Assembly (NCBI GenBank): GCA_046314355.1
Contig: JBKBWQ010000001.1
Span: 192,001-256,000, forward strand
DNA: 64,000 nt
Source: Candidatus Altimarinota bacterium
GTDB lineage: Bacteria > Patescibacteriota > Gracilibacteria > 1-14-2-50-48-13
Direction: 5' to 3'
How positions within the stretch are numbered: the first letter of the stretch is position 1; the number at the start of each line of letters is the position of its first letter. The notes under the pieces are model-generated. The model was not told the DNA's origin, ran no database searches, and saw only the letters and a list, made by a program, of their open reading frames with translations. Made by a program: the position numbers and the translations under genes. Below are positions 9,788 through 47,269 of the stretch, piece by piece.

Positions 9788-9915
9788 GAGTAAATGGTAA
9801 TTAAGCAGTTAAGGGCTCGTTATTGGGCTCAATAATTAGGCGCTAATAATTGAACTCAATAATTGCAGCCCAATTACCGAGCCCCAATTACTTAATGACT
9901 CTCTTACTCAATTAC
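9788..9915. repeat. Self-inverted 13-14 bp unit array (gene-less copy)
   Basis: GGGCTCG, GGGCTC, AGGCGCT | GAACTC | GCAGCCC, GAGCCCC cores separated by AATWATT-like spacers; between divergent ybaB and rplY. Confidence 0.88.
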
Positions 9916-10066
9916 TTTTTTACTTTCTATCCATTTTCTCCCTCACTTCTTTTAAAAAACTATTGCAAAAACGAATTTCTAGAGTATCTTTGTAGAGCAT
10001 ATTTAAAGAAGGGCGCTCAATATATAAAAATTAACGGTATTACTTTTCTAACATTTACACACACGG

Positions 10067-10708
10067 ATGGAAAACATTGTACTTCCTGTACAGATGAGAA
10101 ACGCTGGATCACAGGCAGCCAAGGATTTACGAACTGAAAAACAGGTTCCAGCAGTAATCTACGGCCATAAAAAAGAGAATATTCATATTTCAGTAGATGC
10201 CGAGAAACTTCGAAAAGTATATCGACATGCAGGAAGAAACACTATTGTTACTCTTGAACTTGATGGAGGAAAGACTGAAAAAGTACTTATCCATATGGTA
10301 GATAGACATCCAGTGAAAGATACTTTCATGCACGTAGACTTCTACGCTGTGAAGCTTAAAGAGAAGATTACTACAACTATTCCTCTTGAGTTTACTGGTA
10401 TTTCAAATGCAGTGAAAAATTTTGGTGGTATTTTTGTAGAGACAATGAGTGAAGTGGAAGTACGATGTCTTCCAACTGATCTTATTCATACGATCGTAGT
10501 AGATATTGCAGTACTTGAAAACTTTGGTGATTCTATCCATGTAAGTGATCTTATTGTACCTAAGACTATAGAAATTCTTACGGGAGAAGAAGAGACAATT
10601 GCTCTTGTACAGGCACCTAAGGAAGAAGTTGTTGCAAACGAAGCTCCTTCTGCAGACCAGCTTGTCCCAGAGTCAGCGAAAGACTCTACAGAATCTTCAG
10701 CAGCATAA
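10067..10708 (+). CDS. rplY: 50S ribosomal protein L25/Ctc
   Basis: VPAVIYG, HVDFY, IHVSDL motifs; long Ctc form. Confidence 0.96.
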   Translation: MENIVLPVQMRNAGSQAAKDLRTEKQVPAVIYGHKKENIHISVDAEKLRKVYRHAGRNTIVTLELDGGKTEKVLIHMVDRHPVKDTFMHVDFYAVKLKEKITTTIPLEFTGISNAVKNFGGIFVETMSEVEVRCLPTDLIHTIVVDIAVLENFGDSIHVSDLIVPKTIEILTGEEETIALVQAPKEEVVANEAPSADQLVPESAKDSTESSAA

Positions 10709-10739
10709 TTTTCCTTTTATATAATTACTTAAACTTCAC

Positions 10740-44041: not shown

Positions 44042-46471
44042 TTATCTCATTGAAATACCAGATTCCTTTTCAACAGCATTTACTGCGCTTTTAACTACTT
44101 CCTGAATTTCATTGTCCTTTAATGTCCTCTCAGGATTACTCAATGTAAGAGCAAATGTAACACTTTTTTTCTCTGATGGAACTTGTTCACCTTCATAAAT
44201 GTCGAATACTTCCACATCTTTAATGAGGCTGTTTGCTGAAGCTAGAGTTTCCAGTACATTTCCCACATACTGACGTTTATCCATGAGGAAAGCTAGATCT
44301 TTCCGTACTGCAGGGAACTGAGATACAGGAGTATAAGAAATTTCTCCGCAAATATCCTGGAGCATACTAACATCGAGTTCTAGAGCAGCAACATGAGCAT
44401 TCTTTATATCAAAATTACTCATTGCCATGGGGTGTACCTCCGCAATCACTCCAAGTACTTTGTCGCCTGCCACAATCTCAGCAGCCTTTTTAGGGTGTAC
44501 CCAGTGCTGGACTTCAGTTATTTCTTTACTGATTGGCTGGAAAGTAATCTTCTCTTTCAGGTGAAGAGCAGCAAAAATATCTTCAAGCAGGGCTTTAATA
44601 TGAAAATATGGATGATCCCAGGTATTCTTCATATCCTCTGTATGTGCGGCTATGATACCCAGATGAGCAGTCTCATAGGATCTTTCCTTTGATGTATCCC
44701 AGAATTTTCCCTCAACCTTTGGATAGACATGTTCTATTTCAAAAGCACTTATATGATCAGAAATCTTTAAGTTCTCTGCTGCAGTTTTCAGGAGGTGAGG
44801 CACAATATGTGTACGCATCATTTCCTGTTCGGAGGAAAGGGGATTCATGATCGCAATAGTCTCCTGGGTAAGAAGTGCATTTTTATGATCTTTCTTTGAA
44901 TAAAAAGAATAATGCTGTACTTCCTGGAGATTTGCTTGAGTAGAGAGTAGGTTTCTAAGATAATTTCTAAATTCCACTTCACTGTGAGCTGCATTGGGTG
45001 TAATCGGAAGCACAGGAATACTTGGTGTAATATTTCCAAATCCTAGAATACGGGTAATCTCTTCTACAATATCTTCTTTCATAGAAATATCTCCTGTAGC
45101 CCGCCAGCTTGGAACACGGAGAGTAAAATTATCACTGTCCTTTTCCTCGATAATGAATCCAAGGAAAGTAAGAATATCCTGGATTTCCTTTGTCTCTACG
45201 GGAGCTCCAATCCGATCTTTCAGGAATGAGTATGAAAGATCTATAGATACCGGTGCATTTGGCGCTGGATAGATGTCAGTAATACTGCTGGCAACTTTTG
45301 CTTCAGGATGTAACTCAAGGAAAAGAGATATAGCCTTTTCTAATGCAAGAATAGTCATCTCCGGATCAAGATTTTTTTCAAATCTCATGGATGCCTCCGT
45401 ACGAAGAGAAAGTGCCTGAGCACCTTTTCTAATAGTAGTTGGATGAAATATAGCAGCTTCTAATATAATATTTTGAGTCTGTTCACTGACTTCAGAGTTA
45501 TTAAGTCCCATGATTCCAGCAATTGCTATAGGAGTTTCTTTATCTTTTATAAGTAATACTGACTTTGGCACGGAGCGGTCTTGTCCATCAAGAGTAGTTA
45601 GCTCCGCTTCTTCTGAGCTCATATAGCCTACATGAATTTCTTTGGAAGTAAGTTTATCTGCATCAAAAGCATGAAGAGGTTGTCCGAGATCAAGCATGAC
45701 ATAGTTTGTGACATCTACAATGCTGTTGATACTTCGAATACCTACTTTTTCAAGACTTGTGCGAAGCCATGATGGGGAAGAAGTTGGTTTGATGTTTTCT
45801 ATATGTACTCCTAGATACCTTTTGCAAGTGTCTTTCTCTTCTATTGTTACTGAGAGTTTAGGAAGAGTTTCGTAGTTTGAAAAATCAAGCTTTGTTTCCA
45901 TGAAAGCTTTTAAAGGCTTTCTGTATATAACTGAACATTCTCTCGCAAGACCGTAATGTCCGAAAAGATCTGGTCGGTTTGTGATGGATTTATTATCTAT
46001 TTCAAGAATAGTATCATTGTAATGCATATATTCAAAAAAACTCTTTCCTATAGGTGCATCAGTAGGAAGTACAAGAATACCCTCTGCTCTTGTCTCTGAA
46101 AGTCCAAGTTCATCCTCTGAACAAATCATACCTCGAGACATAGTTCCTCTAAGTTCTGCCTCTTTGATTACAAAATCAGGTGCAAGCTGAGCACCAGGTA
46201 ATGCTACTGGCACTTTTTGACCAATCTCAAGATTTTTTGCTCCGCAAACTATTTGTCTAAGAGAACCTTCTCCAGCGTCAATCTGAGCAACCCGAAGTTT
46301 ATCCGCATTTGGATGTGGAATAAGTTCCTTTACTTCACCAATCACCACATGATCAATACCTTTCTGTTTTACTATGGATTCTACCTCGGAAGTATGGAGG
46401 CTGAGATCCTCTAAAATCGTAGAATCATCTATATCAACATAACGGCGGAGCCACTCGAGAGAAATATGCAT
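44042..46471 (-). CDS. pheT: Phenylalanine--tRNA ligase beta subunit
   Basis: HPNADKL, IVCGA, TNRPDL, GQPLHAFD, C-terminal FDX-ACB; 809 aa. Confidence 0.98.
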   Translation of the reverse strand: MHISLEWLRRYVDIDDSTILEDLSLHTSEVESIVKQKGIDHVVIGEVKELIPHPNADKLRVAQIDAGEGSLRQIVCGAKNLEIGQKVPVALPGAQLAPDFVIKEAELRGTMSRGMICSEDELGLSETRAEGILVLPTDAPIGKSFFEYMHYNDTILEIDNKSITNRPDLFGHYGLARECSVIYRKPLKAFMETKLDFSNYETLPKLSVTIEEKDTCKRYLGVHIENIKPTSSPSWLRTSLEKVGIRSINSIVDVTNYVMLDLGQPLHAFDADKLTSKEIHVGYMSSEEAELTTLDGQDRSVPKSVLLIKDKETPIAIAGIMGLNNSEVSEQTQNIILEAAIFHPTTIRKGAQALSLRTEASMRFEKNLDPEMTILALEKAISLFLELHPEAKVASSITDIYPAPNAPVSIDLSYSFLKDRIGAPVETKEIQDILTFLGFIIEEKDSDNFTLRVPSWRATGDISMKEDIVEEITRILGFGNITPSIPVLPITPNAAHSEVEFRNYLRNLLSTQANLQEVQHYSFYSKKDHKNALLTQETIAIMNPLSSEQEMMRTHIVPHLLKTAAENLKISDHISAFEIEHVYPKVEGKFWDTSKERSYETAHLGIIAAHTEDMKNTWDHPYFHIKALLEDIFAALHLKEKITFQPISKEITEVQHWVHPKKAAEIVAGDKVLGVIAEVHPMAMSNFDIKNAHVAALELDVSMLQDICGEISYTPVSQFPAVRKDLAFLMDKRQYVGNVLETLASANSLIKDVEVFDIYEGEQVPSEKKSVTFALTLSNPERTLKDNEIQEVVKSAVNAVEKESGISMR

Positions 46472-46651
46472 AAATATATCTGCATTTAAGCGAATAATAC
46501 GAATGGAAGTGTACTAGGAAAAAGGAAAAAGTAAAAGAGTAATTGGTAATTAAGTAATTAGTATTGTTGCTAGTTAGTAATAACTGCTTTGAAGCTTTCT
46601 TATTCTTACAAGCTATGATATAAACAAAATAATTATTACTTCTAAATATCT

Positions 46652-47143
46652 ATGCGTTTTCTAGGCATTGATCCAGGTATTGCTACAGTTGGTTTTGGAG
46701 TTATTGAAAAAACAGGCAATAACTATACTATGATTGATATGGGGACAATTGTTACTCCAAAAAATCTAGATACTCCTGAGAGACTTAATATCATCCGTAC
46801 TGATTTACTTGATCTCATTGATACTTTCAAACCGCATGCAGTATCAGTAGAAAAACTCTACTTTTCTACAAATGTAAAAACTGCCATGACTGTAGCAGAA
46901 GCACGTGGTGTAATACTTGAAACTATATTTTCGAAAGGTATTCAGGTAGTGGAATTTAACCCTCTTGAGATCAAGCAGGCAGTGACTGGGGACGGTAAAG
47001 CTGATAAAAAACAAATTCAGGATATGCTGAAGCTATTATTAAAACTTGAAAAAGCACCGAAGCAGGATGATGCTGCTGATGCTTTAGCAAGTGCTCTTTG
47101 TCTGGGACAGAGTTGGGAAATGGTAAAGAGGATGGGGGAGTGA
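46652..47143 (+). CDS. ruvC: Crossover junction endodeoxyribonuclease RuvC
   Basis: LGIDPG, VEKLYF, EARGV, DDAADALA. Confidence 0.97.
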   Translation: MRFLGIDPGIATVGFGVIEKTGNNYTMIDMGTIVTPKNLDTPERLNIIRTDLLDLIDTFKPHAVSVEKLYFSTNVKTAMTVAEARGVILETIFSKGIQVVEFNPLEIKQAVTGDGKADKKQIQDMLKLLLKLEKAPKQDDAADALASALCLGQSWEMVKRMGE

Positions 47144-47269
47144 GTGGGGCTTCATAATTGGGCGCACATTACTAGGCTCAATAACTGGGCTGCAATTATT
47201 GAGCTCAATTATTAGCGCCCAATTATCGAGTCCAATTACCCAGCCCCAATTACTCTCTTACTCCATTAC
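47144..47269. repeat. Self-inverted 13-14 bp unit array filling the ruvC/eno convergent gap
   Basis: GGGCGCAC, AGGCTC, GGGCTGC | GAGCTC | AGCGCCC, GAGTCC, CAGCCCC cores. Confidence 0.92.

Follow-up and report, generated by a model that had tools for sequence, protein, structure and literature searches.

A dispersed family of intergenic palindromes in a Gracilibacteria genome and its probable relation to PF05635 cassettes

The stretch of DNA analysed here (the window, 64,000 nucleotides) belongs to a 1.69 Mb genome of the Gracilibacteria class of Patescibacteria, of hot-spring metagenome origin. It carries five arrays of GC cores, predicted earlier from the sequence alone; all were found in place, with sequences that agree with their description. 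Their bounds had been set too short, since the profile bounds reach further out for all five. Array 1 is a full palindromic element (9748-9949, profile bounds; DNA fold z-score -3.93) in a divergent context, with the side of a YceG-family gene, where the nearest frame is a 97-aa ORF, facing the L25/TL5 gene. It is made, in order, of a purine-rich outer part, F-type 13-14-nt units, a GAACTC switch, R-type units and a pyrimidine-rich outer part. The other four are also palindromic elements. Array 2 (20186-20332; switch core GCGCTC) is located upstream of the gatB start, and array 3 (30052-30234, profile bounds; switch core GGACTT) between divergent dnaG and a 421-aa ORF without Pfam match. Array 4 (43921-44058) has two GAGCTC cores and adjoins the pheT stop codon. 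Array 5 (47113-47300; RNA fold z-score -5.70), with ATTGAGCTCAAT as its centre, lies between the convergent ruvC and eno genes, the ruvC stop being inside its outer purine-rich module.

The window also contains a split copy on the plus strand. Its left half-array (4530-4572) has two ATTAGGCTCAAT units with a 13-nt period and 100% match. It is followed by a PF05635 gene of 126 aa (4648-5028; E-values of 3.1e-21 for PF05635 and 3.6e-22 for TIGR02436) and by a right half-array (5034-5103, profile bounds) of GAGCCC, GTGCGCCC and GAGCCC units, which terminates at the stop codon of a minus-strand 493-aa gene. Window positions 4530-5103 form an ORF-bearing copy of the palindrome family, with arms 84% complementary and 476 nt apart. 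The innermost unit and the GAGCTC centre are missing from this copy, precisely at the position of the cargo. PF05635 is the family of the 23S rRNA IVS protein (S23p), an Avd-like, pentameric four-helix bundle. To our knowledge, the fold of this family has been solved, no function is known for it and its members are not known transposases.

A profile built from the five window arrays (nhmmer) gave 114 strand-hits, merged into 54 loci with E-values from 1.8e-45 to 3.8e-4. The family thus has at least 54 loci on contig C1, with elements 70-202 bp long that make up 0.48% of the genome. The predicted density of about one array per 10 kb holds in the window; genome-wide it is about one per 30 kb. 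The motif ATTGAGCTCAATTA has 57 copies genome-wide and its reversed control none, so the chance matching that could have spoken against the original prediction was not observed. Moreover, all 36 genomic copies of ATTGAGCTCAAT fall within the 54 loci.

Each element is an imperfect palindrome in which two arrays of short, directional units face each other in inverted orientation. The outer units measure 8 nt (AGTAAKNN); inner units are 13-14 nt long, of the GGGCTCAATAATT type, and oriented toward the centre, ATTGAGCTCAAT, which is a perfect palindrome. The inner units are themselves near-palindromes, of ATTGGGCTCAAT type in the left array and ATTGAGCCCAAT type in the right array. The recurrence of cores every 13-14 bp, as first described, was recovered both in the core spacing (modes of 13 and 14 nt) and in the TRF periods (13/14/26/27). 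The polarity of the cores (GGGC.. on the left, ..GCCC on the right) and the switch cores (GAACTC, GCGCTC, GGACTT, GAGCTC and GAGCTC in arrays 1 to 5) likewise agree with the description. Unit number, order and sequence vary widely among copies. A CRISPR array was considered and rejected: the units follow each other directly, are degenerate and change orientation at a centre, without unique spacers between identical direct repeats.

The predicted ability to form long hairpins was clear when the folds were compared with shuffled sequences and other intergenic DNA. RNA-fold z-scores had a median of -5.25 for the 54 elements (47/54 below -3 and 51/54 below -2), as opposed to -0.75 for 80 other intergenic segments (12/80 below -3). 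Pairing between an element's own arms scored 15.9 and pairing with the arms of other copies 17.8. Own arms are therefore no more complementary than foreign arms, and the pairing gives no sign of selection copy by copy. The elements also close reading frames rapidly. All three frames were shut within a median of 43 nt, with 3 of 108 entries remaining open, whereas control spacers had a median of 70 nt and 94 of 696 entries open. An ORF is present in a single locus of this family, the split copy, and within no other element.

Tandem, divergent and convergent gene contexts are all used, as had been noted, and in proportion to intergenic bases: the elements are distributed as 54%, 33% and 13%, respectively, and the genome's intergenic bases as 52%, 35% and 13.5%. 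After subtraction of the element, spacers measure 57 nt in tandem contexts (62 nt normally) and 146 nt in divergent ones (165.5 nt normally). Since a spacer minus its element has the normal length, the elements resemble inserted DNA, and we infer that they originated as DNA added to otherwise normal intergenic spacers. Promoter-like motifs were found at 30 of the 58 element sides that look onto a gene 5' end and at 4 of the 39 that look onto a 3' end, indicating that these promoters belong to the genes and not to the element. The positions of the elements displayed no pattern related to ori or ter. The 18 pairs less than 5 kb apart had a higher similarity (0.318) than the remaining 1413 (0.253; permutation p 0.0005). 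The best normalised pair score was 0.54; with no near-identical copies among the 54, any spread must be old.

The distribution of the family outside this genome was assayed by several searches. The 14-mer ATTGAGCTCAATTA was absent from 40 relatives. With up to 3 mismatches, the 20-mer centre has 56 sites in this genome and 0-3 per genome in 400 genomes of the class, a level like that of the reversed control. Searching one genome per GTDB species returned only 15 single matches and did not reveal the family, and JGI metagenomes gave 31 matches, none of which belonged to the family by nhmmer. On these searches, the palindrome family is lineage-specific. Arrays fixed in relatives were the other outcome that could have told against the prediction; none of the relatives searched had them. 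The genomes of the same family are distant (enolase 56-63% identical, ruvC-eno synteny absent), too much so for empty orthologous sites to be compared. A nearer relative has a GatB 93% identical.

The split copy is not the only PF05635 gene set between inverted arms. A second one, at C1:452372-452727, is enclosed by 28-nt arms that are 86% complementary, and the motif of these arms also makes up a second family of palindromes, ORF-less and with 10 loci. Each of the 3 PF05635 genes in this genome is enclosed by a pair of inverted repeats with 459-481 nt between them, the third pair being weak (78%, 18 nt). We surveyed the flanks of 32 PF05635 loci, 29 of them from relatives, together with 63 shifted controls. 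The median inverted-repeat score was 17.5 at PF05635 loci and 9.0 in the controls (Mann-Whitney p 8e-15); scores of at least 14 were reached at 26/32 loci and at 0/63 controls. Both arms were periodic (7/14, 8, 9 or 13 nt) in 14/32 loci, compared to 0/19 control arms. The inverted arms in relatives are often arrays of 7-9-nt units, with a private sequence for nearly every gene examined. PF05635 genes occur in 71 of 121 genomes of the class, with up to 16 matches per genome.

IVS elements are described as selfish elements whose bordering inverted repeats pair into a stem that RNase III cuts and in which the S23p ORF is optional; some IVSs are ORF-less hairpins of about 100 nt (PMC4990558). The ORF-bearing copy is like the ORF-bearing 23S IVSs of Coxiella and Leptospira in being a small cassette (about 430-550 bp) with terminal inverted repeats and a PF05635 ORF (PMC4990558). 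Unlike IVSs, the copies described here lie in ordinary intergenic spacers, and the 23S rRNA gene (C1:1366156-1369178) contains 0/54 loci. Their arms are arrays of short tandem units and not a simple 28-bp stem, and the form without an ORF has reached a number of at least 54. Small size, lack of coding sequence, inverted arms, intergenic dispersal and a longer ORF-bearing relative with the same arms are shared with MITEs. Unlike MITEs, these elements have no sharp termini and a very heterogeneous number of units, and the ORF of the related cassette is PF05635, not a known transposase; target-site duplications of at least 5 nt did not rise above control. Cyanobacterial STRR are short (7-nt) tandem units in intergenic DNA, which the arms of PF05635 cassettes in relatives, often heptamer arrays, resemble. 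STRR are described as direct tandem arrays, however, and are not known to form inverted pairs that flank a gene.

Altogether, the arrays are probably ORF-less, MITE-like derivatives of IVS-like PF05635 cassettes of about 550 bp that have lost their cargo. The MITE-like part of the original prediction is supported by the number of dispersed copies, the extra DNA in normal spacers, a placement that follows intergenic bases, the likeness of neighbouring copies and the one relative with the same arms and an ORF. Either the full cassette or its empty form would have been copied into new intergenic sites by some activity; unit numbers would then drift through slippage and copies decay independently. 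A transcript of either strand would fold into a long AT-rich hairpin with GC-core clamps, which, by analogy with IVS stems, is a plausible substrate for RNase III, and the genome has an RNase III gene. Stop-containing units would shut the three frames for ribosomes coming from both sides. With frames closed in this way, insertion beside stop codons or upstream of promoters would be tolerable. Target-site duplications of at least 5 nt beside inverted termini were detected at 12/54 loci and at 8/54 chimeric controls, hence not above control, and shorter ones are beyond reach at this divergence. Consistent termini were not found across the 54 loci, comparison against contigs showed no deletion joint, and PF01609, PF00665, PF00078 and PF07282 had no matches in the genome. 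With no transposase, target duplication or empty site found, mobility is what we infer and not what we observe.

The order of events might be the reverse, with the palindromes older and serving as a target, PF05635 cassettes homing into array centres and the arms flanking the genes being split palindromes. The lack of the innermost unit and centre exactly where the cargo sits is what this scheme expects, the 54 empty copies against one filled fit it, and both palindrome families have a GAGCTC/CAGCTC-type centre despite unlike arms, as a common target or junction would. However, the private arms of nearly every PF05635 gene examined in relatives argue against it. In one relative (G076), moreover, which has a palindrome family of 12 loci, 0/5 detected PF05635 ORFs have a member of that family within 400 nt, so genes seem to carry their arms along. 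This order of events would still have to explain by other means how the palindromes arose and spread, and we consider it credible but unlikely. Transposition by a RAYT-type Y1 enzyme, as in a REP/REPIN system, is very improbable. The genome does have two PF01797 (Y1 transposase) genes, one intact and one frameshifted (C1:772701-773060 and C1:827760-828114), and the elements, like the REP, BIME and REPIN of proteobacteria, are intergenic, hairpin-forming palindromic repeats in mosaic combinations, clustered at times. However, the GC hairpins on either side of the Y1 genes (CCCCGGAG...CTCCGGGG) are unrelated to the family and unique to those two loci, which look, from their 95.7% identity over 513 bp, like two IS200-type copies. 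No family element flanks them, the nearest being about 6 kb away, and there is no RAYT association. The elements also differ from REP sequences in unit sequence and in their grammar of directional 13-14-nt units. They are mosaics of 13-14-nt and 8-nt units, 70-202 bp in length, and not 20-40-nt REP hairpins, and the whole element is one long palindrome instead of alternating REP hairpins. The REPIN label is therefore not supported.

Two functional explanations were also weighed. In the first, which we regard as quite unlikely, the arrays are bound by a protein, regulatory or nucleoid-associated, that recognises specific DNA sequences, probably as a dimer, and whose sites would be the near-palindromic 12-mers ATTGRGCYCAAT repeated every 13-14 bp. 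Every unit is indeed a near-palindrome and the centre of the element a perfect one, and this centre is confined to the elements; unit sequence is conserved, own-arm pairing not being specifically maintained; and copies are clustered, with 18 pairs within 5 kb for about 9 expected (an estimate from positions). However, placement tracks intergenic bases and not promoters or gene classes, and unit number, order and sequence differ widely among copies. That the family was not found in same-family and class genomes makes a conserved housekeeping role unlikely, no candidate protein was found, and, with no ori/ter pattern either, the nucleoid-organising array originally suggested gained no specific support. 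Less probable again is a role chiefly in RNA, the elements being kept, like some REPs, as bidirectional transcript-end structures (terminators or 3'-end stabilisers); REPs are known to affect mRNA ends. For most of the 39 3'-facing sides, 4-45 nt separate the stop codon from the outermost GC core, the hairpins are very stable for both transcription directions, and a separate canonical terminator was seen by eye at only about 5 of these 39 sides. However, a third of the elements are flanked by divergent promoters and so have nothing to terminate. Their stem is not followed by a U-tract, while the usual terminators of this genome are of the GC-stem/T-run type, and their distribution is again proportional to intergenic bases.

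The derivation from PF05635 cassettes, which we prefer, can be extended, tentatively, to PF05635 genes in general. These might mark a so far unrecognised kind of mobile cassette, small and hairpin-ended, with classical rRNA IVSs as merely the special case of insertion into rRNA. At the ends of such cassettes, stop-containing units of 7-14 nt would form inverted arrays, to which the pentameric PF05635 protein may bind, and the cassettes could shed their gene and multiply as trans-mobilised palindromes. Such a class would account for the multi-copy PF05635 genes of CPR bacteria and for genome-specific palindrome families like this one. The link with PF05635 provides a concrete handle on two long-standing questions, the nature of IVS elements and S23p/Avd-like ORFs and the way they move. 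If the arrays do derive from cassettes, intergenic palindromes of many uncultured lineages could be annotated as cassette derivatives, and proteins of the PF05635 family would have the unit arrays as candidate binding sites. CPR/Patescibacteria genomes are small and usually considered repeat-poor, whereas 0.48% of this one is occupied by a single palindrome family, in addition to the second family.

Finally, the contigs of the probable source run break off inside arrays 4 and 5; in practice, then, these elements break assemblies.

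The original description of the five arrays proved accurate as regards their cores. GC-rich cores of 6-8 nt recur at a spacing of 13-14 nt with AATWATT-like spacers between them, left cores reading GGGC.. and right cores ..GCCC in all five arrays, and the switch occurs at the near-symmetric cores GAACTC, GCGCTC, GGACTT, GAGCTC and GAGCTC (arrays 1 to 5 in order). Tandem Repeats Finder returned periods of 13, 14, 26 and 27 at these sites and extended them to window 4538-4566 and 5034-5072. An inverted-repeat finder placed arms of 29-49 nt, 71-76% complementary, around each of the five centres. 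The arrays were correctly located, but the ends first assigned (9788-9915, 20200-20327, 30074-30201, 43927-44026 and 47144-47269) were too narrow. Outside the GC cores lie purine-rich left stretches with 8-nt AGTAAKNN units and a pyrimidine-rich mirror on the right; with these outer stretches, the true elements cover window 9748-9949, 20186-20332, 30052-30234, 43921-44058 and 47113-47300.

A family profile built from the five window arrays was searched against the assembly (1,688,208 bases, 28 contigs, 38% G+C). Merging of the 114 strand-hits left 54 loci, each 70-202 bp long (median 151.5), which together take up 8,098 bp (0.48% of the assembly). At least two further diverged members were detected by a palindrome scan, at C1:64590-64746 and C1:538862-539008 (C1 is contig JBKBWQ010000001.1, and the window is its stretch 192001-256000). 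The genome-wide motif search suggested earlier gave 57 occurrences of ATTGAGCTCAATTA against 0 for the reversed control, and all 36 genomic copies of ATTGAGCTCAAT fell inside the 54 loci. The arrays are a real, well-defined repeat family.

A full copy is layered. The outermost layer is rich in purines and commonly includes a GGAGAAGTGAGGG-like module; it is followed by a variable number of 8-nt units, AGTAAGNN or AGTAATTG, with ACTT runs in some copies. Next come 13-14-nt units, for example GGGGCTCGGTAATT, GGGCGCACATAATT, GGACTCAATAATT and GGGCTGCAATAATT, then the centre AATAATTGAGCTCAATTATT, after which the layers are mirrored. Every inner unit is a near-palindrome (left ATTGGGCTCAAT, right ATTGAGCCCAAT, central ATTGAGCTCAAT), so that a single asymmetric base pair sets the polarity of a unit. 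Both the order and the number of units vary between copies. Two elements (C1:405290-405325 and C1:637490-637520) have six to seven consecutive ACTT tetranucleotides in their outer part, which points to slippage in the arms.

The hairpin potential originally proposed was confirmed by RNA folding against dinucleotide shuffles. The 54 loci had a median z of -5.25, with z below -3 in 47 of them, compared to a median of -0.75 and 12/80 in 80 other intergenic segments. Single folds gave z -3.93 for array 1 as DNA and z -5.70 for array 5 as RNA. At Rfam gathering thresholds, the whole window yielded two tRNAs only, and the arrays had no match. Avoidance of GAGCTC as a restriction site was considered and rejected (446 sites versus 466 expected).

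The family is neither a REPIN, nor a CRISPR array, nor the operator set of one regulon. The REPIN label had to be dropped, as the Y1 transposase genes of this genome (C1:772701-773060 and C1:827760-828114; one intact, one frameshifted) carry their own flanking hairpins, GC-rich CCCCGGAG...CTCCGGGG structures found nowhere else in the genome. The two loci are copies of an IS200-type element with no relation to the arrays. Searches of the genome for DDE_Tnp_1, rve, RVT_1 and TnpB zinc-ribbon domains found none, and genome self-BLAST detected no multi-copy insertion sequence. The earlier statement that the arrays are not operators of one regulon held. With a crude longest-ORF gene call (1,342 genes, 89% coding), tandem spacers contained 54% of the elements, divergent ones 33% and convergent ones 13%, against 52, 35 and 13.5% of intergenic bases, respectively. 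Once the element length was subtracted, tandem spacers measured 57 nt versus 62 nt in element-free ones, and divergent spacers 146 versus 165.5 nt. Therefore, the elements look like DNA added to ordinary spacers, with no bias towards any gene arrangement.

On most gene 3'-facing sides, the outermost GC core and the stop codon were separated by 4-45 nt, and on 5'-facing sides a -35/-10-like pair was usually found between gene and element. Outward promoters borne by the elements were rejected as an explanation, because such pairs occurred on 30/58 sides facing a 5' end versus 4/39 facing a 3' end; two of these four were upstream of a tRNA gene or beside a doubtful ORF. The promoter-like pairs are thus the genes' own. 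In several element-adjacent genes, a -10-like hexamer stands just 2-3 nt ahead of the start codon (for example at C1:1228062-1228122, C1:544183-544244 and window 20333-20358), a distance that suggests leaderless transcripts in Candidatus Altimarinota bacterium. The genes flanking the arrays in the window are housekeeping genes (YceG, L25, GatB, ClpB, DnaG, PheT, RuvC and enolase). Across the genome, genes enclosed by neighbouring elements were, as judged by eye, housekeeping or of no assigned function, with no transposase-like gene among them. Cumulative GC skew placed ori at ~1.07 Mb and ter at ~0.31 Mb. Copies were dense near both and sparse along one mid-replichore stretch; a Noc/SlmA-like ori/ter pattern was rejected, density having no simple relation to either landmark.

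Neighbouring copies are more alike than distant ones. The 18 pairs less than 5 kb apart had a similarity of 0.318, versus 0.253 for the other 1,413 pairs (permutation p 0.0005), and 6 of these 18 were among the top 50 of all 1,431 pairs. No near-identical copies were detected among the 1,431 pairs, the best normalised score being 0.54. Target-site duplications of at least 5 nt were not above control (12/54 loci versus 8/54 chimeric controls), and no terminus was common to the 54 loci. Among the 42 of 54 copies with at least 30 long-range pairs, complementarity was 15.9 between a copy's own arms and 17.8 to the arms of other copies. Own arms pair no better than foreign ones; palindromy appears to belong to the family consensus, without copy-by-copy upkeep. 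In the contigs of runs X1 and X3, joints removing an element were not found, only contig ends and cross-matches inside arrays 4 and 5, a picture that does not bear on polymorphism. In the probable source run, a hot-spring metagenome and the only run found to contain the stretch, contigs end or cross-match within array 4 (window 43978-44004) and array 5 (window 47174-47251), indicating that the elements break short-read assemblies.

The family is genome-specific and comprises at least 54 hairpin-forming unit arrays. The names of GatB relatives and the class of the small genomes around it place the organism in the Patescibacteria, in the Gracilibacteria-class sense. It was absent from all 40 relatives searched, including 3 same-family genomes. 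Allowing up to 3 mismatches, the 20-mer centre gave 56 sites here and 0-3 per genome in 400 other genomes of the class, approximately the reversed-control level. Scanning one genome of each GTDB species for an 18-mer returned 15 hits, all single and in unrelated taxa. A centre-plus-unit pattern matched 31 loci in JGI metagenomes, none convincing against the family profile; the best of them (L053) was rejected as a member, being a different direct repeat. The three same-family genomes have diverged too far for a comparison of element junctions, and ruvC is not the neighbour of enolase in any of them. Closer relatives are known from proteins alone: GatB is 93% identical (P0002) and RuvC 76-85% (P0122-P0124). 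In alignment A2, the C-terminal tails of the three RuvC relatives (76-85% identity) differ from ours solely in the last ~4 residues, a comparison that is silent on whether these relatives carry the element.

One copy of the family bears an ORF (window 4530-5103). Its left half (window 4530-4572) has two left-type units, ATTAGGCTCAAT twice, and its right half (window 5034-5075) three right-type units, GAGCCC, GTGCGCCC and GAGCCC. The ~460 bp between the half-arrays contain a 126-aa ORF of PF05635, the 23S rRNA intervening sequence (IVS) protein family. Two other PF05635 genes are present in the genome. One of them (C1:452372-452727) is enclosed by 28-nt arms with 86% complementarity and a separation of 459 nt. 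The motif of these arms (CTTATCCTCATCC / GGATGAGGATAAG type) makes up a second ORF-less palindrome family of 10 loci, among them C1:416396-416499, 468973-469076, 804655-804734 and 357988-358067. Its units are of the CTTATCC / GGATAAG type and its centres ..GAGCTC.. or ..CAGCTC.., as again in the first family. This second pairing of cassette and palindromes runs parallel to the first; therefore, the genome contains two independent cases in which the arms of a PF05635 cassette recur in a palindrome family of their own. For the third PF05635 gene, the inverted pair was weak.

A search of 121 class genomes found PF05635 genes in 71, the richest genome having 16 matches. We analyzed the flanks of 32 loci, 3 of them in this genome and 29 in relatives. 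Scoring the best inverted repeat between the two 260-nt flanks gave a median of 17.5, against 9.0 for 63 shifted controls, with scores of at least 14 in 26/32 loci versus 0/63 controls (Mann-Whitney p 8e-15). Arms stood 337-655 nt apart and were often tandem arrays of short units private to each cassette, such as AAGCAGT, TTTAGGG, GTAGGAAG or ATCGTTT; periodicity of 7/14, 8, 9 or 13 nt was found in both arms at 14/32 loci versus 0/19 control arms. Flanking of PF05635 genes by inverted, often periodic, arms is thus a class-wide rule. At L091 (G005:C2:185159-188476), which comes from another class genome, a cassette with heptamer-type arms follows the end of what reads as thyA, a thymidylate-synthase-like ORF, and precedes the start of what reads as folA, a DHFR-like ORF. 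These two genes abut directly in our genome (C1:602363-603698), and the L091 cassette looks like an insertion between them. The PF05635 matches of five class genomes (G088, G074, G030, G036 and G108) have 2-5 in-frame TGA codons, which fits the alternative code used by part of the class; the matches in this genome have none.

A whole-genome search of another class member, G076, revealed an ORF-less palindrome family of comparable design, AT-rich and with 12 loci, whose units are like AATTTCTAAT (for example 254773-254885, 440800-440918 and 1328462-1328578 on its contig C1). Single palindromes of other short units were also seen on that contig, e.g. at 400650-400785. For arms shared with PF05635 cassettes, one G076 cassette with similar TCTAAT-type units was found but not joined to the family by nhmmer, so a link between the two is only suggestive.

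One published account treats the IVS of Coxiella as a selfish element of 428 nt within 23S rRNA; it carries an S23p ORF, and its bordering inverted repeats form a 28-bp stem cut by RNase III. Older proposals cited there regard IVSs as transposition remnants or as mobile elements whose ORF serves mobility (PMC4990558). Insertions in the rRNA genes of CPR bacteria (PMC11270868) and the space between cas genes (PMC3936711) are other reported locations of PF05635 ORFs, and the family has been likened to the DGR accessory protein Avd (PMC10053308). In the passages of the literature searched, dispersed palindromes that lack an ORF and are linked to such cassettes were not described.

The placement and spacer lengths are the signature of added DNA. 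Given the shared arms, we infer that the palindromes are a cargo-less, MITE-like form of an IVS-like cassette or, alternatively, its preferred target. They would have spread through some putative activity, and, once transcribed, they might fold into stems of the RNase III type; the genome has an rnc gene. The stop-containing units would shut all three reading frames quickly from both sides. Three-frame closure took a median of 43 nt in the elements, with 3/108 entries left open, versus 70 nt and 94/696 in control spacers. Therefore, the elements would probably be tolerable directly behind stop codons. The family is best filed as an IVS/MITE-like palindromic element outside rRNA genes, tied to PF05635 cassettes.

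Other dispersed repeats were observed. A separate repeat of ~280 bp (window 14248-14529, C1:206248-206529) directly follows a tRNA gene (window 14164-14250) and has about ten copies elsewhere on C1 at 76-90% identity, for example near 366.2k, 403.1k, 726.8k, 958.8k and 1170.6k. Another family on C1, of ~300-490 bp and 82-95% identity, was found at 860448-860985, 848989-849424, 1344784-1345219, 1395710-1396176, 1-425 and 2581-2970.
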